64,000 nucleotides of DNA from Gemmatimonadota bacterium (GCA_003221895.1 QHUJ01000118.1:3925-67924); one strand, 5' to 3'; counted from the first letter of the stretch, positions 11,501-62,989 are shown. Program-made: numbers and translations. Notes: generated from the letters alone by a model not told the origin.

Positions 11501-11625
11501 ACCGATTGAATGGTCGAGCCGAACGATTGAAACAGCACCCGCACCCACAGCAGCTCGTAGATGAGCCCGGTGGTGCCGGAGAGAAAGAAGAGAACGCTAT
11601 AGGCGAGGGCCGGCTTAGAACGCAT
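8443..11625 (-). CDS. Fused polytopic membrane domain / spermidine-synthase-like methyltransferase-fold domain / C-terminal TPR-like helical domain protein
   Basis: Many TM helices in the N-terminal half. SpeE-like core [14 protein letters not shown]...VVEIEP...[14 protein letters not shown]...LYTPEFF. The probable start is ATG 11625 ([17 protein letters not shown]), overlapping the upstream stop by 11 nt. The ORF-track start at 11703 is an upstream extension. Confidence 0.85.
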
Positions 11626-13744
11626 GGAGCTCGCGCATCGCCTGCGCGAGATCCTCCACCTGGGGCAGGATATAGTCTTCGAGGTCGGGGGCGTACCCGA
11701 CAAAGGTGTCCGTCGACGCGACGCGCTTCACCGGCGCATCGAGCCAGGCAAAGCATTGATCGGCGATCCGCGCGGCGATCTCGGCGCCGTAGCCCCAGGA
11801 CTGGGCATCCTCGTAAGCCACGATCACCTTGTTCGTCTTCCGGATCGAGGTCTCGATGGTCTCCCAGTCAACCGGCGCCAGCGACCGCAGGTCGATGACC
11901 TCCACGCTGACGCCGTCTTTTTCCTCGAGCTCCTTGGCGGCGACCAACGCGCGCTGCACGACCGCACCATAGGCGATCACCGACAGCCCTGTCCCTTCCC
12001 GTACCACCCTCGCCTTTCCGAAGGGGATCATGAAGTTGGGACCGGGATTGGGAGCCTTGTTGTAGGTCTGGCGATACAGATGCTTGTGCTCGAGGAAGAG
12101 GACGGGGTCGTCGCAGCGAATCGCCGTTCGCAGCAGCCCGTTGGCGTCGAGCGCCGTCGCCGGACAAATGACTCGCAGTCCTGGCACGGAGGTGAAAATG
12201 ACCGCGCCGGTCTGTGAGTGATAGACCGAGCCGCCCTTGAGGTAGCCGCCGTATGTGACGCGCACGACGACCGGGGCACTGAATGCATTGCTCGAACGCC
12301 AGCGCATGGTGGCGAGCTCGTTGCGCAGCTGATGATAGGCGGGCCAGATGTAGTCGAAGAACTGAATCTCGACCACGGGCTTCAGCCCCCGGGTCGCCAA
12401 CCCGATGGCCCGGCCGACGATGTTCGCTTCGGCGAGCGGCGAGTTGTAGACGCGATCGCTGCCGAACTGGCGCTGCAGACCCCAAGTGACTTTGAAGACG
12501 CCGCCTTTGCCCTTCACTTCCTTGAGGTATTGCTCGCGACTGACGTCGGCGACGTCCTGGCCGAATACCAGGATCCTGGGGTCGCGCGCCATTTCATCCT
12601 TCATGCAGGCATTGAGCAGATCCACCATGGTGGTCGGCTCGCCCGTGAAATGGGGATCGTCTTCGGTATCGAACTGCTCGGACGTGGGATCGACGTCCGG
12701 CGAGTAGACCCACAGCGTCGCGGTTTCGGGCTTGGGCTGCGGCGACGCCAGCGCCATATCGACGGCGACCTGAATCTCCTCTTCCACTTGCGCCTTAATG
12801 GCCTCGATCTCGCTCTCAGTCGCGACCCCTTCGTCCAAGAGATGCTTTGGGAAGGTCGTCAGCGGGTCACGTTTGGCTTCTTCTTCACGTTCGCGAGGGG
12901 GCTTGTAAAGGATTTCATCGTCGGAGAGAGAGTGCGAGTAGGGCCGAGTGACGTGCGCATGCACGATCGCCGGCCCCTTGCGCTGGCGGCACCATTCCGC
13001 CGCGCGCAGGACCGCCTCATACGATAGAATCGGGTCGCTGCCGTCGACTTCTTCGAGCAACAGATTGGGGAAATTGCGCACCAGCTTGGATACGGAGCCG
13101 CCGGCGGTCTGGACCTCGATCGGCACCGAGATGGCGTACTTGTTGTCTTCGATGAGAAACAGGACCGGCAGCTTGAGATTGCTGGCGCTGTTCAGTGCCT
13201 CCCACCATTCGCCTTCGCTCGTCGTGCCGTCACCCGCCGAGCAATACACGATCTCGTCACCGTGGATCGGCTTTTCCGTTATTCCCTCGTTGCGGCTGTA
13301 GCGCAGCCATGCCTCGGCGCAGCCCACGGCCTGCAGGAACTGGGTGCCTGTGGGACTCGATTGGCTCACGATGTTGAGCTGCTTGTGCCCCCAGTGCGAC
13401 GGCATTTGCCGACCGCCCGAATTGGGATCGTCGGCGGCGCCCACCGCAGCCAGAAACATCTCCGTGGGCGTCATGCCGAGCGTGAGACAGATGGCCCGAT
13501 CGCGGTAATAGGGATAGAACCAGTCGTAGCCGGGACGCAGGACTTTCCCGGCGGCGACCAGCACGGCTTCGTGACCCGCACCGGAGATCTGGAAGAAGAT
13601 CTTGTTTTGCCGCTTGAGCTGGATCTCCTTGTCGTCGATGCGGCGCGACAGGAGCATCAGCCGGTAGATATCGAGAAGATCAGCCTTGGAGAGTGTAGCC
13701 GACGGAGGCGCCACTTTGCGAGTGACGCGCTGACGGGTTGCCAT
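11615..13744 (-). CDS. 2-oxoacid dehydrogenase E1 component, fused alpha/beta subunits (TPP-dependent)
   Basis: Alpha part: [29 protein letters not shown] (TPP motif). Beta part: VFGQDVAD...[29 protein letters not shown]. The probable start is ATG 13744 (MATRQRV...). Confidence 0.9.
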
Positions 13745-33735: not shown

Positions 33736-33765
33736 GCTGAGGCAGGTCGGTGGAGAATGGTGGAG

Positions 33766-33796
33766 GGTGGTGGAGGTTTCACCATCCTCCACCACC
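33766..33796. terminator. Perfect 11-bp GC-rich hairpin GGTGGTGGAGG-tttcaccat-CCTCCACCACC between convergent genes; candidate bidirectional terminator
   Basis: Read directly. It is followed by TATTTCC on the + strand and sits between the stop at 33735 (+) and the stop at 33796 (-). Confidence 0.55.
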
Positions 33797-34788
33797 TATT
33801 TCCAGCCCCTCAAGCTCCTCACATAGTCGTGAAGCACCAGGAATTTTTCGTACACCCGAACACCCTTCCTCTTCCTCCCAAACTCACTGAACAACTCGCG
33901 CAACCTGCCGCGCCGTGCCACGTAGAACCGGAACGTCTCGGCGAAGTCCTCCTGGGGGTGCGTCGCCGCATAGGCGCTGACGTAGTCGGTCAGGGTCGTC
34001 GCGATGCGGCGGCGCTCGAAATCGACCCAGTGCTCGTCCGCGACGCGATAGGCCTTGCGCACTTCGCCGAACGCGCGCCGGAATCGGCCGCTGCGCGTCC
34101 ACGACCAGTGATGATAGAGGAACGAGTGGCCCAGCTCGTGGAGCAGGAGACCGGTCAGCATGTTCCACGAAATCTCGTCGCGCCGCCGCTTGCCGGTGAC
34201 GTAGCGGCGGTCCAGCTCGATGACTTTCGGCGCCCGAGGGGCGACACCGGAAACGCCGGGCCGCAGTGCCACCCGGTAGTGCCAGTCGCGAATGCGCGAC
34301 ACGATCAACAGGCGGCGGGCGCGGCGCAGCGCCCGCGGGATCAAATCGCGCCCGGTCGCGTCCTCACCGCACCACGGGCACGTCGCCATCCAGTCGTCCA
34401 CCCCGCGGTCGCAGTGGGGGCAGACGTTCTGGAAATCCTCGTACTTCCAGGTTTGCGCGCGGCCGCACCAGGGACAAAACCGCATCGGGTACATGACGCC
34501 GCCGCCGCATCCCCACTCGCAGCGACGGTGGAACTTGAATCCCTTGGGCGCCTTGAGCGGCTCGTCGCTCGAATCCTCGTCCTGGATGTTGCGGCCACAC
34601 CAGGGGCAGAACGACGCTGCGTCGGACACGATCCAACCACAGTATGCGCACTCGGCGTTCGTCTCACGCTGCGTGTCCTTCCACTCGAGGCGCCGGCCGC
34701 AGCTCGGACAGTAGCCCCAGAAGCGTTGCAGCTCGGTGTGGCAGCGGGAGCAGCGCAGCTCGGGCGTGGGGACTTCGCGGCGGCTCAT
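33796..34788 (-). CDS. Four tandem zinc-ribbon modules fused to a putative zinc metallopeptidase (HExxH) domain
   Basis: CSRC..x12..CPSCG; CAYCG..x10..CPWCG; CEWGC..x10..CPWCG; CPHCD..x9..CPWCG; then LLHELGHSF and PQEDFAETFRFY. The start overlaps the ATP-grasp stop by 4 nt. Confidence 0.85.
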   Translation of the reverse strand: MSRREVPTPELRCSRCHTELQRFWGYCPSCGRRLEWKDTQRETNAECAYCGWIVSDAASFCPWCGRNIQDEDSSDEPLKAPKGFKFHRRCEWGCGGGVMYPMRFCPWCGRAQTWKYEDFQNVCPHCDRGVDDWMATCPWCGEDATGRDLIPRALRRARRLLIVSRIRDWHYRVALRPGVSGVAPRAPKVIELDRRYVTGKRRRDEISWNMLTGLLLHELGHSFLYHHWSWTRSGRFRRAFGEVRKAYRVADEHWVDFERRRIATTLTDYVSAYAATHPQEDFAETFRFYVARRGRLRELFSEFGRKRKGVRVYEKFLVLHDYVRSLRGWK

Positions 34789-35783
34789 CGCGCCAACGCC
34801 TCGTCGACGATGCGCTGAACGAAGGCGTTGTACTTGAGCCCGGCCTTCTCCGCCGCCTCCGCCATCTCATGCTCGGCGGCGATGAACGGATTGGGATTCA
34901 CCTCCAGGACGTACACCTCGTCGTCGTGCGCCACGCGCACGTCCACGCGCCCGTAGTCCTGAAGCCAGAGGGCGTGAAACGCGGTGCGGCAGATCTCGCC
35001 GATCCGCTGAGTCAGGTCGTCGGACACTCCCTTGGCGAACACGTTCCTGATCTTCTTGCGCTTGCGATATTCCTCGTCCCATTTCGCCTTGTAGGTCGCA
35101 ATGCGGTGCTCGGTCGTTTCCGGCTCCCCGAATGTCATCTCCGTGAGTGGCAGCACCTCCACGTCGTCGTTGCCGATGAGCCCCACGTACAGTTCGCGAC
35201 CCTCGACCAGCTCCTCCACGATCGCGGCCTGATGGAACTTGTTGTGAATGAACTCGACGCGCTGCGTGAGGCTCTGATCGTCTTCGACCACGGACGCCTG
35301 CGCGATGCCGATCGACGCATCCTCGAGCAGCGGTTTGACGATCAGCGGAAAGCGCAGTTCCGACGGGCGCACGAGCGTGTCACCCTCGTGGAACTCGGCG
35401 AAGGCGGGCACACGAATGCCGTGGTAGGCGAGGACCTTCTTGGTGAGCGACTTGTTGCGCGCGACGAGCAGTGCCGTGGGCGATGAGCCGGTGTAGCGGT
35501 AGCCATACATGTCGAGCAGCGCCGCGATCGCGTACTCGTGCCGGGCGTTCTTGCGGAACCCTTCACAGCCGTTGAAGACGAGTTTTGGCTGGAAGGCCGC
35601 CAGACGCGCGAGCAGCGGAGCGACGTCGTCACCGATACCGATCATGCGCACATCGTGGCCACCCGTCATCAACGCGCGGGCGACGTCGTACTCCGCTTCT
35701 TCGGCCTTTTGCTCGATGGCGCGCTTGTACTCCGCATCCTCCCACTCGGGATGCAGCGAGTCGAAGATGACGGCGATCTTCAC
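34785..35783 (-). CDS. D-alanine--D-alanine ligase-like ATP-grasp enzyme (substrates unknown)
   Basis: MKIAVIFDS..., ARNKSLTKKVLAYHGIRVP, FPLIVKPLLEDASIGI, EELVEGRELYVGLIGN, GRVDVRV..DDEVYVLEVNPNP are the typical Ddl/ATP-grasp blocks. Confidence 0.88.
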   Translation of the reverse strand: MKIAVIFDSLHPEWEDAEYKRAIEQKAEEAEYDVARALMTGGHDVRMIGIGDDVAPLLARLAAFQPKLVFNGCEGFRKNARHEYAIAALLDMYGYRYTGSSPTALLVARNKSLTKKVLAYHGIRVPAFAEFHEGDTLVRPSELRFPLIVKPLLEDASIGIAQASVVEDDQSLTQRVEFIHNKFHQAAIVEELVEGRELYVGLIGNDDVEVLPLTEMTFGEPETTEHRIATYKAKWDEEYRKRKKIRNVFAKGVSDDLTQRIGEICRTAFHALWLQDYGRVDVRVAHDDEVYVLEVNPNPFIAAEHEMAEAAEKAGLKYNAFVQRIVDEALAR

Positions 35784-35792
35784 GCCACCACC

Positions 35793-37247
35793 TCACCGTC
35801 TCCGAGACACATGGAGGTCGAGCGCGCTCATGCGGTGAATGTCGCGTGCCACGGTCGTGAGGCCGATGAGGATGATCACGCCACCGAGCAATCCGACCGC
35901 CGGCAGGAACAACATCGCGCCCTGCAGGCTGCCCGTGCGGTCCGACAAGTAGCCGATGAGCGGCGGTGCCAGCGCGTCGCCCGCGAGATGCGAGAACAAC
36001 ACGAACGCTCCCAGGACGGACGCCTGCACGGTCGCCGGGACGACGTCGAGAATCACGGCGACGAGGGGGCCGTTATACCACGTGTACAGGAAGTATGTGG
36101 CCATAATGAGCGGGCCGAACCAGCGCAGATCCCTGACCAGGATCAAGGCCGCGCAGACTGGCGCCCCGAGGACGAATCCGGCACCGGACACGAGGACGCG
36201 TCCCCCGCTCCACCGCTGCTGGAGCCGATCGGCCATCCGGCCGCCGACGAGCGCCCCCAGGATGCCGCCACCCAGCGCCCACAGCCCGAAGTCGGCGCCC
36301 ACGCGCGCGACGGACAGCCCGTGAGTTCGCTGCATGAACGCGGCCGCCCAGGCCACCAGCCCATTCACCGCGAATGTGATCATCGCGCCGCCGAGAAACA
36401 CCCAGATCAAAGTCGGTGTGCGGAGCACCCTCACCGCAGCGTCCTGAAAGTCGTCGAACGCGCCAACAGCGACGGCACCTGCTTCCGTCGTGCGCCGCAC
36501 AGCCAACGGGACGAGCCGCCAGACGGTCCAGGCGATCCCGACGCTCACGCCCACACCAAAAACGGCTGTGCCGATCAGGGGGGGAATGCCCTCAAAAAGC
36601 GCCAGCACGCCCGCGATCGCCGCGCCGATTCCGGCGCAGACGGCGAGTGGCGCCACATAGTGCGTCACGCCGAGCATTCCGTGCCGCCACCATTGGCGCA
36701 GAATCTCGAGAATGGGCCGGGGCGGCCGCCGATCCAGCTCACGCAAACGCGATGCAAGCAGCGCCAACACCAGACCGGGGAACCCCATCCAGATGAAAGC
36801 CCACCGCCAGCCGTAATTCTCCGCGATGACGCCGCCGAACCAGATCCCGAGCACCCCACCGAGCGCCATCCCGACGGAGTACACGCCGATCGCAAAGGCG
36901 CGCTGCTTGCCCTTGAAGTATTGGGCAATGACCGCCTGAGATGCGGGTCCGTAGCCCGCCTCTCCGAAGCCCACGAGCGCGCGGCAGGTGAACAGCTGCC
37001 AGAAGCGACCCACAAATCCACCCGCCGTCGTCGCCAGGCTCCAGACCGTCACGCCCCAGGTGATCACGCTGCGCCGCGACCGCAGATCGCCAATGACGCC
37101 GAGCGGCAGCGCCGCGAGCGAGAGCACAATGATGTACGCCGAACCGAGCCAGCCAAGCTGCGCGTCGGTGAGATTCAGGTCGCGCTTGATCGGCTCAAAC
37201 ACCGCATACACGACGTTGCGGTCGAGGTAGTTCAGCAAATTGACCAA
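35793..37247 (-). CDS. MFS transporter (Spinster-like); the true N-terminus probably lies upstream of the TTG at 37247
   Basis: LNYLDRNVV motif after TM1 and 12-TM-like hydrophobicity. The upstream in-frame sequence encodes the rest of TM1 (RAYAVYVLGLLAL) but has no ATG/GTG/TTG. Confidence 0.85.
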   Translation of the reverse strand: MVNLLNYLDRNVVYAVFEPIKRDLNLTDAQLGWLGSAYIIVLSLAALPLGVIGDLRSRRSVITWGVTVWSLATTAGGFVGRFWQLFTCRALVGFGEAGYGPASQAVIAQYFKGKQRAFAIGVYSVGMALGGVLGIWFGGVIAENYGWRWAFIWMGFPGLVLALLASRLRELDRRPPRPILEILRQWWRHGMLGVTHYVAPLAVCAGIGAAIAGVLALFEGIPPLIGTAVFGVGVSVGIAWTVWRLVPLAVRRTTEAGAVAVGAFDDFQDAAVRVLRTPTLIWVFLGGAMITFAVNGLVAWAAAFMQRTHGLSVARVGADFGLWALGGGILGALVGGRMADRLQQRWSGGRVLVSGAGFVLGAPVCAALILVRDLRWFGPLIMATYFLYTWYNGPLVAVILDVVPATVQASVLGAFVLFSHLAGDALAPPLIGYLSDRTGSLQGAMLFLPAVGLLGGVIILIGLTTVARDIHRMSALDLHVSRRR

Positions 37248-37308
37248 TGCCAGGAGACCCAGGACGTAGACGGCATACGCCCGGGTTGGACGGTCGGACT
37301 TCGGGGTT

Positions 37309-38451
37309 TCAGCGGGCGCCGCTGCCCCCGCCAGTGGCTGCCTCGGCGCGCGCGTCGCGATCGGACTTCGCTTCCAGATAGGACTCAGTCAGCTCGCGCA
37401 TCATCTCCTCGCGCCGGTCGTAGAGGCGTTTCAGCTGGCGCGGCTTGCGACGGGCGAGCGCGTACGATGCCAGAATGGGGAACGCCACCGTGTTGTCCAG
37501 GTACGCGACCACGGTCCCGGGCAGCTTATCGGGATCGACCTTGCCCCAACTGACGGCCTCCGATGGCGTCGCGCCGGAGAGCCCACCGGTGTCGGGGCGT
37601 GCGTCCGTGACCTGCAGATAGTAGTCGTGCCCCTTCTCGCTGATCCCCAGCACCTCCTGGATCTGTGGCTCGGTCTGCAGCACGAAGTTCTTGGGGCTCC
37701 CGCCGCCGATGATCAGGACGCCGCTCTTCCCGCCACGAATTTTGGCGGAGAACACGATCGACGACGTCTCGTTCACATCGGCGCTGACGTCGAACCGCAG
37801 CTTGCTTCCCGAAAGGGCCTGCTCGGCGACGTTCATCCCGATCGAGGAGTCGCCAGGCGACGAGGTATAAATCGGAACGGCGGCGATATGCGCCGCGCTC
37901 AATACCGACTTGCGGGAGAGGCCGAGCGCCCGCTCGCGCTCCAAAACATAGCCGCCCAGCAGGTAGTGGTATTCGGCGGTGCTCATCGGCCGCTGGAACT
38001 CCTGCCGGGCTGAGACCTCGCGCACGAAGCGGTCAGTGGAGAGCAGCACGTCGTAATCGAAGAAGATGTCGTAGATCCGCACGACGCCTTCTTCCCGCAG
38101 CACGACATCGTCCGCGAACGGCGTGCCGCGATGCATCGCCATGCCGAGGCCGAAGTGCGCATCGTGGTAGAGATTCGCGCCGGTCGATACGATCCAGTCG
38201 ACGAATCCCGCTTCGATCAGCGGAATGATCGTGGACATGCCGAGCCCTGCCGGGGTCATCGCGCCCGTGAGACTCATGCCGACCGTGACATCGTCGGCGA
38301 GCATGCGTTCGGCGAACAGCCGGCAGCCTTCCGCGAGGCGGCCCGCGTTGTAGGCGAGGAACGCGTTGTCGACGAGGTCGGCAACCGTCTCTGTGCCGCT
38401 GACGGGCTTGGGGCTGATGCGCTGGCCGCGCAGGAACTCGTTCTGGGTCAT
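37309..38451 (-). CDS. Deoxyhypusine synthase family protein (bacterial DHS-like / homospermidine-synthase-like)
   Basis: [44 protein letters not shown] 38451 overlaps the LOG stop as ATGA. The ORF-track start at 38820 is an extension. Confidence 0.85.
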
Positions 38452-39224
38452 CGCGTGGACTGGCTGATCGGTTGCATGGCGCGGAAGGCGCGCGTGCGTC
38501 GTTCGCGGGCTTCCACGATCCACCCGAGCGTCTCCTTGGGGTCGTCGGTGACGAGAAACAGATTCAGATCTTCCGGCGAAATCTTCCCCTCGGCGGCCAC
38601 CCGGTCCTTGAGCCAATCGGCGAGGCCGCGCCAGTACTCCCGGCCGAACAGCACGACGGGGAACTGCTTCACTTTGCCCGTCTGCACGAGCGTCAGCGCT
38701 TCGAACAGCTCGTCCATCGTCCCGTAGCCTCCGGGGAAGGCGATGAATGCCGTCGAATATTTCACGAACATGGTCTTCCGCACAAAGAAGTAGCGGAAGT
38801 TGATCGCGCGCTCCACCCATGGGTTCGTGCCCTGTTCGAACGGCAGCTCGATGTTGCAGCCGATCGAGAGCCCGCCACCTTCTTTGGCCCCGCGATTGGC
38901 CGCTGCCATGATTCCTGGCCCACCGCCCGTGATGATCGCGAAGCCTTCCTTGGCGAGCATACGGGAGGTCTCGTAGGCCGCCGTGTAGAACGGATCGTCC
39001 TCGAGCGTGCGGGCCGAGCCGAAGACCGTCACGGCGTTGCGCACGTCAGACAGTGTGTCGAATCCCTCGACGAACTCGCCCATGATGCGCAGCACGCGCC
39101 ACGGGTCCGTGCTCGTGAACGACGCCCGCCGCTCGATCGGAACGACCTGCGGCGGTGTGAGAAGTTGTTCGTCTTCAGTGAGTGGGCTGCGCGGCGAGGC
39201 GCTCGGTTGCTCTGACATTGTCAT
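38448..39224 (-). CDS. LOG family protein (TIGR00730 / 'lysine decarboxylase-like' phosphoribohydrolase fold)
   Basis: [44 protein letters not shown]. The start is ATG 39224 or 39218 and overlaps the aminotransferase 3' end by 44-50 nt. Confidence 0.88.
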
Positions 39225-40344
39225 CCTGCGAGTTATAAAAGAAAGGCGAGAGTCGGACGTGGCCTGGCCGGCTGTCGGCAATGATGCCGCCCGCGGCCAG
39301 GTGTCGGACGGATCCCGCCGGATCCGGCATCGGAATCATGACGATCGCCGAGCGCTGCTGGGGCTCGGCGGCGATCTTCGGGTGGAATCCCGCGGCGCGC
39401 GCCCGCGCGATCAGGTCTTCGGTCAGCGCGGCGGTCGCTTCCCGAATGGTGGAAATGCCGATCTCCTCGATGTACTCGAGCCCGCCCAGCTGCGCGTAGA
39501 CGGCGGCGAGCGACGGCGTGCCGAGCTCGAAACGGCGCGTGTCGTCGTGAAACGTCAACGTGCGGGGGTCGAACGCGAACTGATCGCGCTGCCCGAACCA
39601 GCCCGAGATCGCGGGCTCGAGCCGGCGGGCCACCGCTTCGCGCAGGTAGAGGAACACGATCCCCGGCCCGCCGAGCAGCCACTTGAGGCCGCCGGCGACC
39701 AGCGCGTCGACTCCGGCGTCGCGCACGTCGACGGGGATCTGGCCGACCGACTGGTACGCATCGATCAGGCAGAGCGCGCCGTGCTCGTGGGCCGCCGCGG
39801 CGACGCGCTTGATGTCCTGGATGGCGCCGCTCGTGAAGTACACATGCGAGGTCACGACCAATGCCGTGCGGTCGTCGACGGCTCGCGCGATCGCGTCGAC
39901 GGGTACGCTGACGCGGTCCGGACTCTCGACGATCACGAGCTCCACACCGGCGCGCACTTTGGCGAGCCACTGATACGCGACCGTGGGAAAATCGAGCGAC
40001 GTGATCACCACTTTCGGGCGACGGCGGTAATCGATTGACTCGGCGATCGCGCTGAGGGCGACCGAGATGCTCGGCGCGAGGGCGATTTCCCCCGGCGCCG
40101 CGTTGACGACCCGGCCGTAACGCGCGCGCAGGTCCGTCAGCGCCTCCCACCAGACGTCGTACCACGCGGCGGCGCCGCGACTCTGCCAGATGTCGAGGAA
40201 TTCGGCTACCTTGCGGCGAGACCGCTCGCCCAACGCGCCCAGCGAGCAGGTGTTGAGGTAGACGCTGTCCCTAAAGATGGGAAACTCGCCGCGATACGTG
40301 GCGAGTCCAAGCGCGCGTGGGTGTACGCTGCTTGCGAGCGTCAT
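39175..40344 (-). CDS. Class-V aminotransferase-fold PLP-dependent enzyme (cysteine desulfurase/kynureninase-like)
   Basis: FPIFRDSVYLNTCSLGAL, TSHVYFTSGAIQD, LIDAYQSVGQIPVDV, GGLKWLLGGPG (PLP-Lys region); 389 aa. Confidence 0.85.
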   Translation of the reverse strand: MTLASSVHPRALGLATYRGEFPIFRDSVYLNTCSLGALGERSRRKVAEFLDIWQSRGAAAWYDVWWEALTDLRARYGRVVNAAPGEIALAPSISVALSAIAESIDYRRRPKVVITSLDFPTVAYQWLAKVRAGVELVIVESPDRVSVPVDAIARAVDDRTALVVTSHVYFTSGAIQDIKRVAAAAHEHGALCLIDAYQSVGQIPVDVRDAGVDALVAGGLKWLLGGPGIVFLYLREAVARRLEPAISGWFGQRDQFAFDPRTLTFHDDTRRFELGTPSLAAVYAQLGGLEYIEEIGISTIREATAALTEDLIARARAAGFHPKIAAEPQQRSAIVMIPMPDPAGSVRHLAAGGIIADSRPGHVRLSPFFYNSQDDNVRATERLAAQPTH

Positions 40345-40366
40345 AGGTCGTGAATATACAGAAGGA

Positions 40367-40633
40367 ATGCAGCGTATCGCGAGTTGGTCGGGACTCTACG
40401 TTCGTTTGGCGGCGCGCGCGCTGGTGCGGCCGCGACTCGCCATCGATTTGCTGCGACTCACGTGGAGTTTTCGCGCGCGCAACTGGTGGCGCCGGCCGCC
40501 CTTTCTTCCCATTCCACCCCGCGAGTACATGCAATGGCGGATGTTCACCGCATATGGCGACGAGCAGGCCGTGCCCCCGGTCGATGACGTGGTGAACTTC
40601 GCGCGCTGGCGGCGCGAAACGATGGGGCTCTGA
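40367..40633 (+). CDS. Small hypothetical protein (88 aa), Arg/Trp-rich
   Basis: ATG 40367 preceded by GAAGGA. The ORF is closely followed by queG (10-nt gap). No recognised motif. Confidence 0.55.
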   Translation: MQRIASWSGLYVRLAARALVRPRLAIDLLRLTWSFRARNWWRRPPFLPIPPREYMQWRMFTAYGDEQAVPPVDDVVNFARWRRETMGL

Positions 40634-50887: not shown

Positions 50888-51708
50888 CAGTGCGTCCCCC
50901 CCTCTTTCACGAGGTCGAGTGGATCGACCGATTTGCCGTCGTGACGAATCTCGAAATGCAGGTGCGGCGCCGTCGACCGCCCCGAGTTGCCGGACAAACC
51001 GATCACTTGTCCAGCCTGAACTTCGTCACCTTCAGCGGCGAGTAGCCGTGATGTATGACCATACATCGTCTCATACCCCGACGGATGCCGCAAGAGAACG
51101 AACAAGCCGTAGTCGGGATCGTAACCGGCTGCGGTGACGGTCCCGCCTCCGGATGCCCGAACGGGCGTCCCAATTGGCACCGCGATGTCGATTCCGGGGT
51201 GGGATTCATCGGGAACGCCGGGTCTCACCTGTCCCCGCGTGACGAACCCTCGTACATCGAGCGGCCAATGCGAGGGTGCAGATGGGCCCGTCTCATACTG
51301 CTTGGTACTCCCCGGCCTGGCCGCCTGGATCGGCACGGCGCGCATGGCGGTGCTGAAGTCGGCGTTGCTTGCGACGCTGCTGCCACCGCGCGTGGTCGTG
51401 GGGGGCGCTTTCACGCCCAGCATCTGGCGCAGCTCCTGGTAGTTCGCTTCGGCGCGATTCAGCGCCGACGCGAGCCGCTGTACGCGACTGTTCTCTGTGC
51501 GCAGCCGGGAGACCTCGCGTTCCAGTCCGGGGACGCGGGCGGCGTTTCGGGAGATCGGTCCCGCGAACGCAAAGAACCCCACGACCGACACGGCAACAGC
51601 CCCGGCGCCCCACTTCCCGGCTGCGAGACCCCACCGAGGAATGCGATACTGTTTGGATTCGAGATCGCCGTCAGCGTGGATGACGATCGTGACGCCGCGC
51701 GTGGTCAT
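50887..51708 (-). CDS. Bitopic membrane M23 (LytM-type) metallopeptidase with coiled-coil linker
   Basis: Short cytoplasmic N-terminus, TM WGAGAVAVSVVGFFAFAG, coiled coil LEREVSRLRTENSRVQRL, M23 motifs HPGIDIA and HLHFEI. Confidence 0.9.
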   Translation of the reverse strand: MTTRGVTIVIHADGDLESKQYRIPRWGLAAGKWGAGAVAVSVVGFFAFAGPISRNAARVPGLEREVSRLRTENSRVQRLASALNRAEANYQELRQMLGVKAPPTTTRGGSSVASNADFSTAMRAVPIQAARPGSTKQYETGPSAPSHWPLDVRGFVTRGQVRPGVPDESHPGIDIAVPIGTPVRASGGGTVTAAGYDPDYGLFVLLRHPSGYETMYGHTSRLLAAEGDEVQAGQVIGLSGNSGRSTAPHLHFEIRHDGKSVDPLDLVKEGGTH

Positions 51709-52589
51709 CCGTCGAACGGAGCGCCGAGGATCAGCTCCAGCAGGCGCGCGAGATCTTCGTTCGAGTAGAACGACAGATGAATCTGGCCTTTGCCCTTGGC
51801 TCGCAGGCTGACGCGCACATCGGTGCCCAGCCGCCGGCGCAGCGCGTCTTCCACCCGCCGAACCTCGGGCGCGGCGCCGACGCCCCGTTTCATCCGCGGC
51901 CGCCGTTCCGGCGCGCGACCGCCGCGCGCGCGGTCCTCGACTTCACGCACCGACAGTCCCTGTGCCACCGCCTCGCGCGCCAGGTTCGTGACGATCCGCG
52001 GATCCTCGAGCGCGAGCAGCGCGCGCGCGTGCCCCACCGACAAATGGCCTTCGTGCAGCATCTGAAGGACGACTTCGGGGAGCTTCAAAATCCGGAGTGC
52101 ATTGGCGACGGTCGAGCGATCGCGACCGACCGCGTCGGCCACGTCCTGTTGCGCCAGCTTGAACTCGGCGATCAATCGCTCGTAGCCGCGCGCTTCGTCG
52201 ACGGGCGACAGATCATCGCGCTGCAGGTTTTCGATCAGCGCGAGGGTTAGCAGCGTGCGGTCGTCGGCGTCGCGCTGCACCGCGGGGATGCGCTCCCAGC
52301 CGAGCTGCTGGCAGGCGCGCAGCCGGCGCTCGCCCGCGATCAGCTCATATCCGCCGTTCGCCCGGCGCACGACGACTGGTTGCAGGAGCCCGGCCTGTTT
52401 GATGGACGAGACCAGCTCCTCGAGTGCCGTCGGGTCGACCGTCTGGCGGGGCTGGAACGGGTTCGGCCGGATGTCCTTGATCGGCAGCTCGACCAAACTC
52501 CCTTCTCGTTCCGCCTCCTCTCGAGTCGGTCCGAGGAGCGCCTCGAGGCCACGGCCGAGGCGACGTCTTCCTGCGGCGGTTTCCGTCAT
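51705..52589 (-). CDS. parB: Chromosome partitioning protein ParB
   Basis: RLGRGLEALL, NPFQPR, GERRLRA, LIENLQRDDLSP, HTH QQDVADAVGRDRSTVANALR. Confidence 0.95.
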   Translation of the reverse strand: MTETAAGRRRLGRGLEALLGPTREEAEREGSLVELPIKDIRPNPFQPRQTVDPTALEELVSSIKQAGLLQPVVVRRANGGYELIAGERRLRACQQLGWERIPAVQRDADDRTLLTLALIENLQRDDLSPVDEARGYERLIAEFKLAQQDVADAVGRDRSTVANALRILKLPEVVLQMLHEGHLSVGHARALLALEDPRIVTNLAREAVAQGLSVREVEDRARGGRAPERRPRMKRGVGAAPEVRRVEDALRRRLGTDVRVSLRAKGKGQIHLSFYSNEDLARLLELILGAPFDG

Positions 52590-53419
52590 GCGGGCACCTC
52601 CGGGGGACGCAGCGATTCAATTGCGGGCAGGTTTGGCGAGGGTGGAGTGTCCTGCTCGACCCGGCGAATCAGCTCCTGGGCGACGGCCAGATAGCTCTTT
52701 GCCCCCACCGACTGCACGTCGTACAAGACGATCGGTTTACCGAAGCTCGGCGCCTCCGCGAGCCGCACGTTCCGCGGGACCGTCACGCTGAACATGCGGC
52801 CCCCGAAGTATTCCTTCGCCTCATCCGCAACCTGCCTGGAAAGGTTCAGGCGCGCGTCGTACATCGTCAGCAGGACGCCCTCGATCGCGAGCGCGGGATT
52901 GAAATTGCGCTGCACGAGCTTGATGGTGTTGAGGAGCTGCGAGAGCCCCTCGAGCGCGTAGTACTCGCACTGGATTGGGATGACCACGCTGTCGGCGGCC
53001 GTCAGCATGTTGAGCGTGATAAGCCCGAGTGAGGGCGGGCAGTCGATGATGACGTAGGCGTACTCGTCACGCAGATCCCGCAACGCGTCGCGCATACGCG
53101 TTTCGCGCGAACGCTGATTGACGAGCTCGAGCTCGGCCCCGACCAGGTCCTGTGTCGCCGGGACGACGTCGAGATAGGGGAAGTGGACGTGGGGGAAGCG
53201 TGCCTGCGACAGCGCGGCGCCCTCGATGATCGCGTCGTAGAGCGAATGACGAATGCGATCGCGCTCGATGCCGACGCCACTCGTCGAATTGCCCTGCGGG
53301 TCCGCGTCGATGAGCAGCGTTTTGCGCTCGGCGATCGCGAGAGATGCGGCGAGGTTCACCGCGGTGGTCGTTTTGCCGACACCGCCTTTTTGATTGGCAA
53401 CCGCAATTACACGAGACAT
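52586..53419 (-). CDS. parA: Chromosome partitioning ATPase ParA/Soj
   Basis: ATG 53419 gives MSRVIAVANQKGGVGKTTTAVNLA (deviant Walker A). IDCPPSLG. Confidence 0.95.
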   Translation of the reverse strand: MSRVIAVANQKGGVGKTTTAVNLAASLAIAERKTLLIDADPQGNSTSGVGIERDRIRHSLYDAIIEGAALSQARFPHVHFPYLDVVPATQDLVGAELELVNQRSRETRMRDALRDLRDEYAYVIIDCPPSLGLITLNMLTAADSVVIPIQCEYYALEGLSQLLNTIKLVQRNFNPALAIEGVLLTMYDARLNLSRQVADEAKEYFGGRMFSVTVPRNVRLAEAPSFGKPIVLYDVQSVGAKSYLAVAQELIRRVEQDTPPSPNLPAIESLRPPEVPA

Positions 53420-53484
53420 TCTATAAATTATTGTCTCAAAAGGAGTTATGTAACTACCGCATTGCTGTGCGTCCAATATACGTT

Positions 53485-53500
53485 CGTTTCACGTGAAACG
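53485..53500. other. parS centromere-like site 1 (cGTTTCACGTGAAACg)
   Basis: Perfect 14-bp palindromic core identical to the canonical chromosomal parS core GTTTCACGTGAAAC, upstream of parA. Confidence 0.85.
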
Positions 53501-53510
53501 AAAGAGCGTA

Positions 53511-53526
53511 CGTTTCACGTGAAACT
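53511..53526. other. parS centromere-like site 2 (cGTTTCACGTGAAACt)
   Basis: Second perfect 14-bp parS core, 26 bp centre-to-centre from site 1. Confidence 0.85.
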
Positions 53527-53539
53527 GCAACGTAGTGCC

Positions 53540-55411
53540 CTACGCGACCCTCCGCCGCCACCGCATCGCTTCGACGACGAGGTTGTGCAGGTCGCTCGGT
53601 GTGACTCCCGGGACGCGCGCCGCCTGCGCGAGAGACGCGGGACGCACGCGATCGAGCTTCTGCCGCGCCTCGGTCGCCAGCGTGTGCAGATCGAGGTAGG
53701 GCAGGTCCGTTGGCAGGGAAAACGACGCGAGCTCTGCGAGCCGCGCGGCAGCGTCCCGCTCGCGCGCAAGATAGCCGTCGTACTTGATCTCGATCTCGGC
53801 CGCGAGGACCGCGTCCGTCGTCCCAATAACACCGACGCCTGCCGCCGTCAGCAGGGCAGCAAGCGAGACGCCAGGACGCTTTGCGACCACGGCAATGCGC
53901 TCGCTTCCGCGCAGCGTTGTCCCACTCTCTGCGAGGATGTCGTTGGCCTGTGCCGGCGCGATCGACGTCTCGCGCGCGAGATCCAGAACGACCTCTTCCT
54001 CCTTCAAGCGACGCTCGGCCGCGCGCAGCTCCGCGGCCGTCAACAAGCCGAGTCGCTCGGCGAGCGGCAGGAGCCGGCGCAGGGCGTTGTCCTGGCGGAG
54101 CAGCAACCGGAATTCCGAACGCGATGTAAAGAGCCGGTACGGTTCGTCGACGCCGCGCGTCACGAGATCGTCGACGAGCACGCCGATATACGCGTCGTCG
54201 CGACCGAGGACGACAGGCTCGAGTCCGCGGATCCGGCGCACGGCGTTGATCCCGGCGACCACGCCTTGGCCAGCCGCCTCTTCGTATCCCGTCGTGCCGT
54301 TGATCTGTCCCGCGAAGAACAGATGCTCGACGGCCTTCACCTCGAGCCACGGCGTGAGCTGGGTCGGCGGGTAGTAGTCGTACTCGATCGCGTAACCCGG
54401 CCGCGTCATTCGCGCGTGCTCCAGGCCGGGGACCGCGTGCAGGAACTCGAGCTGCACGGCGACGGGCAGGGAAGTGGACAGACCGTTCACGTACAACTCG
54501 GTCGTGTCGAGTCCTTCCGGCTCGAGAAAGACCTGGTGGCGCTTGGCGGCCGGAAACTTCACGATCTTGTCCTCGACCGACGGGCAGTAGCGCGGTCCGC
54601 GCCCGCTGATCGCTCCACCGTAGAGGGCCGATTCCTTGATGTGGCGCTGGATGATGTCCTTCAGTTGCTCGCCAGCCCACGTGATCCAGCAGGGAACCTG
54701 GCGGGGCCGTTCCACCCGCTCGTGGAAAGAGAAGCGGTAGCCGTCGGCGTCGCCGTCTTGCCGCTCGACTTTGCTCCAGTCGACCGACCGGCCATCGACG
54801 CGCGGGGGCGTGCCGGTCTTGAAGCGAGATACTGTAAGTCCAATATTCTCAATAACTTGCGCCATCTGCACCGATGGGGCGTCGCCGGCGCGGCCCGCCG
54901 GGATTTGGGTGTCAATTCCCAAATGAATTCGACCGCGCAGAAACGTCCCCGCCGTGATGATCACCGCTCGCGCGCCGAACCGCCGACCGTCGGCGGTCTC
55001 GACGCCGGTGATGCAGGTACCCTGGTCGTTGAAGAGCAGATTTGTGACCATGCCCTGTGTCAGCTCGAGAGCCGGGAGCTGCTCGAGCAGATGACGAACA
55101 GCGCGGCGATAGAGCGTGCGATCGGCCTGGGCGCGCGGGGCCCACACGGCCGGCCCCTTCGAGCGATTCAGCATGCGGAACTGGATGGTGGCGCGATCGG
55201 CGGCACGACCCATCAGTCCCCCGAGGGCATCGACCTCGCGAACAACGGTGCCCTTGGCGATGCCGCCGATGGCGGGATTGCAGGACATCTGGCCGATGGT
55301 ATCGAGGACGGATGTGAGCAGCAGGGTCCGGGCGCCGAGGCGAGCAGACATTGTGGCAGCTTCAGTGCCGGCGTGACCGCCACCGACAATTAGGACGTCA
55401 TAGTCGGACAT
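53540..55411 (-). CDS. mnmG: tRNA uridine-5-carboxymethylaminomethyl modification enzyme MnmG (GidA)
   Basis: YDVLIVGGGHAGTEAA, GQMSCNPAIGG, GTTGYEEAAGQG; 623 aa. Confidence 0.96.
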   Translation of the reverse strand: MSDYDVLIVGGGHAGTEAATMSARLGARTLLLTSVLDTIGQMSCNPAIGGIAKGTVVREVDALGGLMGRAADRATIQFRMLNRSKGPAVWAPRAQADRTLYRRAVRHLLEQLPALELTQGMVTNLLFNDQGTCITGVETADGRRFGARAVIITAGTFLRGRIHLGIDTQIPAGRAGDAPSVQMAQVIENIGLTVSRFKTGTPPRVDGRSVDWSKVERQDGDADGYRFSFHERVERPRQVPCWITWAGEQLKDIIQRHIKESALYGGAISGRGPRYCPSVEDKIVKFPAAKRHQVFLEPEGLDTTELYVNGLSTSLPVAVQLEFLHAVPGLEHARMTRPGYAIEYDYYPPTQLTPWLEVKAVEHLFFAGQINGTTGYEEAAGQGVVAGINAVRRIRGLEPVVLGRDDAYIGVLVDDLVTRGVDEPYRLFTSRSEFRLLLRQDNALRRLLPLAERLGLLTAAELRAAERRLKEEEVVLDLARETSIAPAQANDILAESGTTLRGSERIAVVAKRPGVSLAALLTAAGVGVIGTTDAVLAAEIEIKYDGYLARERDAAARLAELASFSLPTDLPYLDLHTLATEARQKLDRVRPASLAQAARVPGVTPSDLHNLVVEAMRWRRRVA

Positions 55412-55454
55412 AGCGCGAAGTATACCGGGCTGGACCGCGAGACGGCGAGGGACC

Positions 55455-56711
55455 CTACGCCCTCACCCAGCGAACAAGCTCCTTCATGGTGGGGCGCTTG
55501 CCGGTCATCAGAATCCCAACTCGGTAAATCCGGGACGCGACCCAGGTGATCGCCACAATGCCGATTAAGAGCATCGCCAGCGACACCGCCAGCTCGCCCA
55601 TTCCCATGCTGCCGGCCGTCCAGCGAACCGGCGTCGCGATCGGCGACGTAAAGGGAACCATTGACAGCGTCCGGGCAAACGTCGAGGCCGGATCGTTCGT
55701 GAGTCCGATGATCGACAAGTACGAGATCATGAGCAGGTAGGTCACCGGCTGCTGCGCCTGGCGCGCTTCCTGTTCGTTGCTGGACATCGCGCCCACGGCC
55801 GCAAACATCGCGGAGTACAGCAGGAACCCCCCCAGGAAGAAGGCCATGAAGACCGCCACGGTTGCGAATGGGATGTGAGGCAGGGTGATGTCCATGGCGG
55901 ACGCGGGATCCGCACCCAGCAGCCGCGCAATTGGAACGCGAAGGGCGACAAGCAACCGCGCCGATACGCCCCAGATCACAAACTGGAAGAACGAAACGGC
56001 ACCCGCGCCTGCGACTTTGCCGAGCATCAGTTGGAAAGGACGCAGCGATGAAACGAGCACTTCAATGATGCGGGTTGTCTTCTCCTCCAGTACCGAGCTC
56101 ATGACGTTCACGCCGTACAACAGGATGGCCATGAACAGGAGAATCGCCATGACATACGCCAGAGCGAACGATTGGCCGGCGTTCTCGGTCGTGATCTCGC
56201 CCCGCGCGATCTTCTTCTGGGCCAGCGTGACTCTGAGGGCCTGAGCCCAATCCACCACGGTCGGGTTCACGCCCTTGCCTTCGAGTCGCACCTTCTCGAC
56301 GACACGATTCAGCGTGCGCTGCAATTCATCGATGATCTGGAGCGACAGATTCGATGCGCGGTATTCCGCCTTACCGTCGCTGGGCAAGGAGTCGTCGAGG
56401 ATGAGAAATCCATTGAGCTGCTTGGCCTCCACCGACCGCTTCAACGAGTCGAGGACGCCCGGTACGAGGTTGACGGCATTCGCGCGAATCGTCTTACTGG
56501 CTCCAAGCGCCTCCACGACCTTCTTGCCATAGCCCAGCGTGCCGCCGTCGACAACGGTGATGTTCCGCACGCCGCCGCCCAGCGACTGTACGATCTGGTA
56601 AACGATTATTCCGGCAAACAGGACAGGACCGAGGATCGCAGAGACCCAAAACCACCTGGTGCGGACGCGCTCCACGAATTCCCGCCGAATGATCGCCCAG
56701 ACCTTATGCAT
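55455..56711 (-). CDS. ABC-2 type transporter permease (NatB-like)
   Basis: ATG 56711 gives MHKVWAIIRREFVERVRTRWFW, one N-terminal TM, a large extracytoplasmic loop, then 5 C-terminal TMs. Overlaps the ATPase stop by 8 nt. Confidence 0.85.
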   Translation of the reverse strand: MHKVWAIIRREFVERVRTRWFWVSAILGPVLFAGIIVYQIVQSLGGGVRNITVVDGGTLGYGKKVVEALGASKTIRANAVNLVPGVLDSLKRSVEAKQLNGFLILDDSLPSDGKAEYRASNLSLQIIDELQRTLNRVVEKVRLEGKGVNPTVVDWAQALRVTLAQKKIARGEITTENAGQSFALAYVMAILLFMAILLYGVNVMSSVLEEKTTRIIEVLVSSLRPFQLMLGKVAGAGAVSFFQFVIWGVSARLLVALRVPIARLLGADPASAMDITLPHIPFATVAVFMAFFLGGFLLYSAMFAAVGAMSSNEQEARQAQQPVTYLLMISYLSIIGLTNDPASTFARTLSMVPFTSPIATPVRWTAGSMGMGELAVSLAMLLIGIVAITWVASRIYRVGILMTGKRPTMKELVRWVRA

Positions 56712-58953: not shown

Positions 58954-59411
58954 CAGAAGTCCCCCGCCGATTCGGTCGTCACCGGGGCGGCGCTGTTTTG
59001 CAGGGCGGCGTGCAGCGCGTGCCACGCCAGGTTTGCGCACTTGATGCGGCTGGGAAATGCGCGGACGCCCGAGAAGGCGGCCAGCTTCCCAGGCGCGTTC
59101 GTCCCGCCGGCAAGCATGTCCCGGAACGCCTGAAACATCTCTTCGGCCGCGGCGATCGACTTGCCCTTCACTGCGTCGGTCATCAGCGACGCCGACGCTT
59201 TCGAGATCGCGCAACCGGCACCCTGCGGCATCTGGAAGCCGATGTCCGTGATGGTATCGCCGTCGACGTGCACGAAGAGATGGATCCGGTCGCCACACAG
59301 CGGGTTGCTGCCTTCCGCCGTGCGGTTGGCGGTTTCGAGCCGGCGGAAATTGCGGGGATTGCGGTTGTGATCGAGAATCGTCTGCTGGTAGAGCTCGCCC
59401 AGGTCCACCAT
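58953..59411 (-). CDS. sufU: SUF system sulfur-transfer/scaffold protein SufU (NifU/IscU-like)
   Basis: ATG 59411 (MVDLGELYQQTILDHNRNPRN). NPLCGD, GAGCAISKASASLM, KCANLAW. Confidence 0.9.
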   Translation of the reverse strand: MVDLGELYQQTILDHNRNPRNFRRLETANRTAEGSNPLCGDRIHLFVHVDGDTITDIGFQMPQGAGCAISKASASLMTDAVKGKSIAAAEEMFQAFRDMLAGGTNAPGKLAAFSGVRAFPSRIKCANLAWHALHAALQNSAAPVTTESAGDF

Positions 59412-60702
59412 CACGCCGCCAGGCGATCGCGCACGATGCGATCGAGCTCCGCGCGCAACGCCGCGACGTCCATGCGACCGAGGATCTCCGCCGCGAACCC
59501 GTACGTCATCAGGCGGCGCGCCTCCGCCTCGCCGACGCCGCGGCTGCGCAAATAGAACAGCGCCCGCGGATCGAGCGGCCCCACGGTCGAGCCGTGCGTG
59601 CATTTCACGTCATCGGCGTAGATCTCGAGCTGCGGCTGACTGTCGGCATGCGCATCGGTCGACAGCAGCAGGTTGTTGTTCGTCTGCTTCGAATCGGTCT
59701 TTTGCGCACCAGGCCGCACGATGATACGCCCGGTGAACACCCCACGCGACTTTTCATCGAGCACACCGTTGAAGTATTCGTGACTCTCGCAGTGGTCGGC
59801 CGCGTGATCGATGGTGGTGTGATGGTCGGCGTGCTGCTGGCCGGCAAGCAGATAGAGTCCGTTCAGGATCAATGTGCCGCCCGGACCCGCCATGACCGCC
59901 CCGATGTCGTGGCGCGCGAGCGCCGCGCCGAACGCCACGGTGTGCAGGTGGACGGTGCTGTCGCGCCCCTGATGCGTCTGCGTCGTGGCGACGTGGTAGG
60001 CGCGCTCGCTCTCCCGCTGCACGCGGTGGTAGTCCACCCGCGCGCCCTCTCCCACCACCACTTCCGTCACGCTGTTCGTCCAATACGGCCCCTGACCGAG
60101 CGACGCGTACGTCTCGACGATACTCGCGCGGGCTTCGCGCTCGATCACCACCAGATTGCGCGGATGGCTGACGACCTGCTTGGCCCCGCTCGCCAGGAAC
60201 AACAGCTGGATCGGCTCGGCAATCGTCGCTTTGGCCGGCACGTGAACGAATGCCCCCTCGTGCACGAACGCGGTGTTCAGTGCGGAGAATGGCCGGTCCT
60301 GCGTCGCGGCGTACGTGCCGAGGTGCTGGCGAACGAGGTCCTGCCGATGCGCGACGACGTGCGCCAGACTCTGGATGTCGTCGAAGAAGGGCGTCGACAG
60401 CGAGGGCTGGAAGAACCCATCGAGAAAGACCAGCCGGTAGCCGGTCTCGAAGAGTAGGAACGGTCGGATGTCGTCGAGCTTCGGCGTACGAGCCGGCGGC
60501 TGCGCCAGCTCGAACGAGCCCTCGGCGATCGGCGCGACGCTGGTGAAGCGCCACGCCTCCTGCTTCATGTTCGGAAAACCGAGATCGTGAAAGCGGGCGA
60601 TGCCGCCTTCCCGCAGATCCTTAAGCCAGCTGGGAGCGCCTGATGCGCCGTTCGCAGCCCACGCGCGATACGATCCGACCAGCTGTTCTACATGCGCCAT
60701 CG

Positions 60703-60706
<4 letters not shown>
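59411..60706 (-). CDS. sufD: Fe-S cluster assembly protein SufD
   Basis: C-terminal beta-helix block QTNNNLLLS..A.ADSQPQLEIYADDVKCTHGSTVG.LD..ALFYLRSRG. GTG 60706 overlaps the sufC TGA. Confidence 0.92.
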
Positions 60707-62927
<2,221 letters not shown>

Positions 62928-62989
62928 ACAGCTCCCGGAAGTCGTTACTGGACATAACCTTGGCAATCAAACCGACAGCCAGAATCGGA

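Follow-up and report, generated by a model that had tools for sequence, protein, structure and literature searches.

A run of six closely packed genes in a soil Gemmatimonadota genome raises the question of whether the products of such a string serve one pathway or several. The genes encode a class-V fold pyridoxal phosphate (PLP) enzyme (hereafter AT5), a LOG nucleotide phosphoribohydrolase, a member of the deoxyhypusine synthase (DHS) family (SpeY), a major facilitator superfamily (MFS) transporter, an ATP-grasp ligase and a zinc-ribbon metallopeptidase. They lie in a 64,000-nt stretch of DNA (GCA_003221895.1, QHUJ01000118.1:3925-67924), referred to here as the window, which is part of an 87-kb soil-metagenome scaffold from a Gemmatimonadales bacterium. 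The original prediction, made from the sequence alone, placed six minus-strand genes from 40344 down to 33796, and all six open reading frames (ORFs) were confirmed at these positions. Its family assignments proved correct by Pfam and NCBIfam profile scoring of each product. Its central proposal, one undescribed six-gene pathway, did not hold up: the genes are co-conserved only together with unrelated flanking genes, they are lost singly, the ligase and peptidase genes occur elsewhere as a pair alone, and SpeY is already characterised. We consider it fairly probable that the six genes are a clade-specific, translationally coupled string of soil Gemmatimonadales that brings together no fewer than two modules of separate function, and probably three.

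Conservation and loss of the six genes

Related loci were retrieved by a peptidase-profile scan of one genome per GTDB species, from which the 80 best-matching loci were used (75-97% identity, nearly all labelled Gemmatimonadales). More distant contexts were taken from single-protein look-ups. All six genes occur in order in 54 of the 80 closest loci. The upstream QueG gene and an 88-aa ORF are also kept in 51 of these 54 complete loci, and the downstream genes are usually conserved too. The synteny block thus takes in the unrelated flanks QueG, the 88-aa ORF, M20, MBL and a cytochrome c. Because the six genes co-occur where these unrelated flanks are also conserved, their co-occurrence is ordinary synteny. 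The original prediction had proposed co-conservation of the six genes as its check and had named adjacency without it as contrary evidence; the co-conservation does not extend beyond general synteny, which is that contrary outcome.

The operon-like packing described for the window is real and conserved across the clade. The median junctions are -47 nt between AT5 and LOG, -4 nt between LOG and speY, +4 nt between the MFS and ATP-grasp genes and -4 nt between the ATP-grasp and peptidase genes (60-67 loci). The LOG and AT5 genes share 38-50 nt in 61 loci.

Several genes of the string have been lost while the others stayed in place. The ATP-grasp gene is cleanly lost in 10 loci that form a subclade (L035, L037-L044 and L070). 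In these loci the MFS gene now runs straight into the peptidase gene through an ATGA overlap of stop and start, and HELGH, EDFAE and every ribbon of the peptidase are retained. AT5 is absent from L045 and L071 although the flanks are present, and in L034 the MFS gene is reduced to a remnant. A locus with 72% peptidase identity (L090:7085-10002) contains only LOG, speY and the peptidase gene behind the same QueG gene and 88-aa ORF, with no AT5, MFS or ATP-grasp gene.

Eight loci lie outside the synteny block. Their common feature is only the ATP-grasp/peptidase pair, usually with overlapping stop and start codons, among unrelated neighbours. Compared with the window, the peptidases of these loci share 64-69% identity and the ligases 48-54%. 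No homologs of AT5, LOG, SpeY or the MFS transporter were found within 8-10 kb in any of the eight. They include two metagenome-assembled genomes (MAGs) labelled Kofleriaceae or Deltaproteobacteria, i.e. Myxococcota. The pairing of a ligase with a hydrolase, a theme on which the original prediction had drawn, is therefore borne out for this ATP-grasp protein and HExxH peptidase, which recur as a pair. The peptidase gene was found without an adjacent ligase gene in 11 loci, and the ligase gene without the peptidase gene in one locus (L093). Taken together, the single-gene losses, the isolated ligase/peptidase pair and the conserved flanks point to a composite operon and not to one pathway.

Two kinds of irregular entry were seen among the pairs. 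P0251 and P0253 (470 and 561 aa) are artefacts of assembly or gene calling in which the C-terminal part of the ATP-grasp protein reads through a frameshift into the peptidase; even so, they are independent confirmation that the two genes are adjacent. A 2.4-kb contig binned as Candidatus Krumholzibacteriia (L012, DATEHD010000439.1) carries a ligase-peptidase pair with 89-94% identity to that of the window and is probably a mis-binned Gemmatimonadales contig.

The ligase and peptidase cassette

The ATP-grasp gene (34785-35783, minus strand, GTG start) encodes a predicted Ddl-fold amide ligase of 332 aa. It matches Pfam Dala_Dala_lig_C (E = 1e-27). The best-scoring Ddl model, NF002378, gives 130.1 bits against a cutoff of 243, and the protein falls below every Ddl and Van cutoff. 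An AlphaFold2 (AF2) model with a pLDDT of 87 shows a complete three-domain fold, which Foldseek places on Ddl structures with TM scores of 0.72-0.77 and 18-26% identity. Residues were compared with E. coli DdlB, using a sequence verified to be identical to PDB 2dln. The residues related to ATP, Mg and catalysis are conserved (K97, K144, E180, E187, R255, D257, E270 and N272). Neither the window protein nor its orthologs keep the D-Ala-binding residues E15, S150, Y216, G276, S281 and L282. At E15, S150, Y216, S281 and L282, the window protein and four distant orthologs have a gap or variable residue, A, a variable residue, H and E/D, respectively. From its sequence and model, the protein is predicted to form an amide via an acyl-phosphate by Ddl-like chemistry, but it is not a Ddl. 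The original prediction had accepted that its pathway would fall if this gene were the housekeeping Ddl of the genome; the scores below the Ddl cutoffs and the replaced D-Ala residues show that it is not.

The peptidase gene (33796-34788, minus strand) encodes a predicted cytoplasmic metallopeptidase of 330 aa, in which four zinc ribbons precede a Peptidase_Mx domain that bears HELGH and EDFAE motifs. Pfam DZR is matched with E = 3e-14, and Peptidase_Mx (PF15887) with 49.2 bits against a cutoff of 27. All 16 ribbon Cys, HELGH and EDFAE are invariant in the peptidase alignment (A1). The protein also has a weak match to the metallohydrolase PDB 9urd. The family is narrow, with one full-length cluster at 50% identity and a few remote members at about 26% identity. 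A literature search for Peptidase_Mx/PF15887 found no characterised member in the paper library searched. The AF2 model, built from a 14-sequence alignment, has a mean pLDDT of 49.5, which is too low for a fold search. The remote homologs of about 26% identity have the same architecture, and no ligase gene was found near them. One of them, a low-GC four-ribbon homolog (L087:129-8987), lies downstream of three dynamin-like GTPase genes, with no ATP-grasp gene near.

It is conceivable, and we offer this tentatively, that the ligase and peptidase are an undescribed self-contained system of Gemmatimonadota and Myxococcota that makes and removes a non-D-Ala amide or peptide mark, and that its integration into the speY operon of this clade would tie it to polyamine status. 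If so, the mark could sit on a small molecule or on a macromolecule. The compact pair is conserved in two phyla, and its chemistry is open to a simple in vitro substrate screen.

In a rival reading, the pair would tag a macromolecule reversibly. The ligase would attach an amino acid or a short peptide to a protein, much as RimK does, with a ribbon-targeted peptidase as its counterpart, independently of the polyamine genes. In MAGs of both Gemmatimonadota and Myxococcota the pair is conserved and its stop and start codons overlap, which fits this idea, the four invariant zinc ribbons suggest protein or nucleic-acid binding, and the peptidase is unusually conserved compared with the ligase in the outside loci. 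However, the ligase is nearest to the small-molecule ligase Ddl in both sequence and fold, and the RimK Pfam model is matched with just E = 7e-5. No conserved third gene, as a candidate substrate, was found beside the pair in the eight outside loci, and the two genes also occur apart from each other, as noted above. Tagging of this kind is unlikely.

SpeY and the predicted CTG start of the transporter gene

The third gene (37309-38451, minus strand) encodes a DHS-family protein of 380 aa. It scores 546.9 bits against the NCBIfam equivalog NF001980 (homospermidine biosynthesis protein), for which the cutoff is 450. The catalytic Lys of the SWGK motif is kept: in an alignment, EAVSWGKV of the window protein matches the archaeal DHS lysine, whose role in the DHS family has been described (PMC10981699). 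SpeY, also named CdmS, couples two agmatines into N1,N9-bis(guanidino)homospermidine, which a ureohydrolase or iminohydrolase turns into homospermidine (PMC10981699, PMC13625781). By its profile score and catalytic residue, the gene first described as DHS-like is speY, the agmatine-coupling gene of homospermidine biosynthesis, and does not encode an uncharacterised aminobutyl transferase. A literature search for speY together with LOG or a transporter found nothing relevant. The new genomic context of speY bears on how the abundant soil Gemmatimonadota make homospermidine. A second polyamine-related gene of the window lies about 26 kb from speY (8443-11727, minus strand) and encodes a 1094-aa protein with a spermine/spermidine-synthase domain (Pfam E = 2e-9).

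The fourth gene encodes a transporter of the MFS family (Pfam MFS_1, E = 2e-50). Among PDB entries, the bacterial Spinster homolog 6e8j matches it best (E = 2e-31). The gene is annotated at 35793-37247 (minus strand), from a TTG start. This start drops the first transmembrane segment (TM1), which is encoded in frame upstream. The start was analysed by comparison of 66 related loci. TM1 is conserved with synonymous changes. No ATG, GTG or TTG is present between the upstream in-frame stop and TM1 in 38 of these loci. Between the speY stop and TM1 lies a linker of variable length (10 to 73 nt), which in 62 of 66 loci leaves a remainder of 1 when divided by 3. That this value is kept despite the variation indicates that the linker is translated.

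A (G)GAGG motif, followed at exactly 6 nt by an in-frame CTG, occurs in 55 of the 66 loci. All 38 loci without a canonical start carry this Shine-Dalgarno (SD)-N6-CTG arrangement, and the 11 loci that do not have it all have a canonical ATG or GTG start. The CTG takes its T from the wobble position of a speY codon, and this codon is NCT in every case (ACT in 50, TCT in 3 and CCT in 2; n = 55). ACT makes up just 5.8% of the Thr codons in the window. In the window itself, the ribosome-binding site is a Shine-Dalgarno-like GAGG within the 3' end of speY (37344-37341), and the CTG is at 37334-37332. The gene then spans 35793-37334 on the minus strand, encodes a Spinster-like transporter of 513 aa and shares 26 nt with speY. 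There is thus strong sequence evidence that the MFS gene is CTG-initiated and translationally coupled to speY. Gene callers choose the downstream TTG and lose TM1, which is an annotation lesson for high-GC MAGs.

Other ways of starting the MFS protein were considered. A programmed +1 frameshift joining SpeY to the transporter was suggested by the 38 loci without a canonical start and by an MFS frame that is always +1 relative to speY. It was rejected, since the codon before the speY stop varies (about ten codons) and SD-N6-CTG explains every locus. An out-of-frame ATG within Ala-Tyr-Ala codons was rejected for want of conservation, the Tyr codon being TAC in 46 loci and TAT in 19. An ACG or ATG start 22-24 codons upstream was rejected as a general solution, with ATG in just about 10 loci, where it may be an alternative start.

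The PLP enzyme and LOG

AT5, the first gene of the string (39175-40344, minus strand), encodes a kynureninase-like protein of 389 aa that matches Pfam Aminotran_5 (E = 3e-36). The best score against a cysteine-desulfurase model is 103.7 bits, and the NCBIfam cutoff is 475. Desulfurases carry a catalytic Cys in the C-terminal half, and the AT5 sequence has no Cys after about residue 195. Being far below the cutoffs and without a C-terminal catalytic Cys, AT5 is not expected to be a cysteine desulfurase of the SufS, NifS or IscS type. Of the solved structures, P. fluorescens kynureninase 1qz9 is the nearest (E = 4e-32), and Pfam KYNU_C gives 22.1 bits against a gathering cutoff of 27. Elsewhere in the window (51705-55462 and 59411-62966), ParB, ParA and MnmG/GidA genes were found, as is typical near an origin, with SufB and SufD genes downstream. 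The downstream placement of SufB and SufD indicates that the class-V enzyme of the operon is not part of the Suf cluster.

The LOG gene (38448-39224, minus strand; alternative ATG at 39218) encodes a protein of 258 aa. It scores 146.7 bits against TIGR00730 (cutoff 96.35), matches PDB 5zi9 with E = 2e-80 and carries the PGGxGTxxE motif. By these profile and motif matches it is an ordinary type-II LOG. PADLOC defence models gave no meaningful matches to the ligase, the peptidase, LOG or AT5; the AT5 matches were to DndA/SspA-like models only, via generic class-V similarity.

A probable composite operon of separate modules

The composite reading draws on what was observed here: the identities of the genes, their couplings, the signal for a CTG start and the pattern of conservation and loss. 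The substrates given below for the LOG/PLP and ligase/peptidase modules, and the cargo of the transporter, are presumed ones. In the first module, SpeY would condense two agmatines, through an NAD-dependent enzyme-imine on the conserved Lys, into N1,N9-bis(guanidino)homospermidine, the precursor of homospermidine. The Spinster-like transporter would be translated from the CTG with its own GGAGG inside speY, tying its synthesis to that of SpeY. Its cargo may be an amphipathic or polycationic amine, which is a guess. A second module would consist of the kynureninase-like PLP enzyme and the type-II LOG, tightly coupled to each other, with the PLP gene being dispensable. The third would be a self-contained cassette, in which the Ddl-fold ATP-grasp protein would form an amide via an acyl-phosphate on non-D-Ala substrates, and the four-zinc-ribbon HExxH peptidase would presumably hydrolyse the same or a related bond. 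SpeY, LOG, Spinster-like MFS transporters and Ddl-fold ligases are all of known kinds. What is new is the setting in which speY is found, the conserved CTG start inside this gene and the uncharacterised pair of ligase and four-ribbon peptidase that spans two phyla. The tempting six-gene pathway is thus replaced by three testable pieces.

Several observations weigh against this division. The packing of all six genes is held in 54 species-level genomes, the subclade that has lost the ATP-grasp gene re-couples the peptidase to the MFS gene by its ATGA overlap, and the reduced locus L090 keeps the peptidase gene 12 nt behind speY. No Pfam family of arginine decarboxylases, ureohydrolases or iminohydrolases was found within +/-10 kb of the locus or in the other large ORFs of the window. 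The peptidase could be functionally tied to speY and the MFS gene in this clade; such a residual link is possible because the peptidase stays coupled after loss of the ligase.

In a single-pathway reading, all six products would serve the synthesis, trimming and export of a polyamine-amino-acid or polyamine-peptide conjugate, with SpeY as the source of the polyamine, the ATP-grasp protein attaching an amino acid, the peptidase trimming or recycling what is formed, and the MFS transporter exporting it. Besides the junctions conserved in 54 loci and the position of the peptidase gene directly behind speY or the MFS gene even where the ATP-grasp gene is missing, the conserved His and acidic residue at Ddl positions 281 and 282 might suit a cationic amine. 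These points are set against the occurrence of the ligase/peptidase pair in eight unrelated contexts with none of the other four genes within 8-10 kb, and against the separate losses of the ATP-grasp gene, AT5 and the MFS gene with the remaining genes intact. Moreover, described speY clusters hold arginine decarboxylase and agmatinase or iminohydrolase genes, not ligases (PMC13625781), and the transporter is Spinster-like, with no known polyamine exporter family matching it. A single pathway is accordingly quite improbable, and the composite operon remains the reading we favour.

Junctions and boundaries of the probable transcription unit

Within the window, AT5 and LOG overlap by 44 or 50 nt (LOG ATG at 39218 or 39224; AT5 stop at 39177-39175). 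LOG and speY share an ATGA overlap at 38451-38448, the MFS and ATP-grasp genes are separated by a gap of 9 nt, and the ATP-grasp and peptidase genes share an ATGA overlap at 34788-34785. These four junctions agree with the original prediction. The short gap that it gave between speY and the MFS gene is really a 26-nt overlap, given the predicted MFS start at the CTG.

The 22-nt spacer upstream of the string (40345-40366), between AT5 and a divergent ORF, was also confirmed from the sequence and the gene calls. This ORF (40367-40633, plus strand, from gene calls on the source contig) is the conserved 88-aa ORF; it has no Pfam match, and nearly all related loci carry it in the position between QueG and the operon, with 70-99% identity. 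With only 22 nt between it and AT5, the divergent promoters must sit within coding sequence. At the other end, a GC-rich hairpin extends from the peptidase stop codon (33751-33804, minus strand) and takes in the segment 33766-33796 where a strong terminal hairpin had been predicted. Its folding energy is -29.5 kcal/mol (z = -4.36), and none of 200 shuffles folds as well. The predicted hairpin is thus real, but its tail contains no U-tract, and it is therefore not a textbook intrinsic terminator.

A consensus scan found 3 internal terminator-like sites, compared with 4.7 expected by chance, and a consensus scan of the locus found no sigma-70 consensus promoter. Neither an excess of terminators nor such a promoter splits the unit, a check that the original prediction had suggested. 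An Rfam scan of 30-44 kb for riboswitches, including guanidine riboswitches, gave no match. The six genes are on the same strand, their junctions are at most 9 nt or overlapping, and internal terminators are not in excess; most likely, they are transcribed together as one transcript. That the adjacency is meaningless, a product of a compact genome with separate units driven by internal promoters, is very improbable. An intergenic gap of 88-124 nt does separate the MFS and ATP-grasp genes in about 10 related loci, and the flanking genes are as syntenic as the six genes. Yet the overlaps of 4-50 nt, seen at four of the five junctions, are signatures of translational coupling, as are the ribosome-binding site and start nested in speY, and internal terminator-like sites are not above chance.

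Comparison with known systems

The speY gene of the window is like those of the SpeY/CdmS pathway in scoring above the equivalog cutoff with the catalytic Lys in place. It differs in context, being flanked here by LOG and a Spinster-like MFS gene, with no decarboxylase or ureohydrolase gene in the window. The transporter resembles Spinster (Spns) proteins, and its best matches in the structural database are 6e8j and human SPNS1/2; unlike them, its translation is predicted to start from a CTG nested in the upstream gene.

The peptidase passes the Pfam cutoff of PF15887, the 'zinc-binding metallopeptidase family', and has HExxH and EDF(A/V)E motifs like these proteins, which are kin to SusCD-associated metallohydrolase lipoproteins (PDB 9urd). 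Zinc-ribbon proteins of PF15887 have one ribbon, whereas the window peptidase has four in tandem. The ATP-grasp protein shares with Ddl the full three-domain fold and the residues for ATP, Mg and catalysis, but is under all Ddl and Van cutoffs and has the D-Ala-binding residues replaced.

As a pair, the two genes recall VanA/VanX, where a Ddl-type ligase works with a zinc dipeptidase; the partner here is also a zinc hydrolase, but an HExxH Peptidase_Mx protein with four zinc ribbons and not of the VanX type. They also resemble glutathionylspermidine synthetase/amidase, cyanophycin synthetase/cyanophycinase and RimK systems, in which the gene of an ATP-dependent amide ligase stands beside that of a hydrolase. 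The window pair belongs to none of these families, with RimK giving a weak partial match, and differs from them further in that its pairing is frequent but not obligatory.

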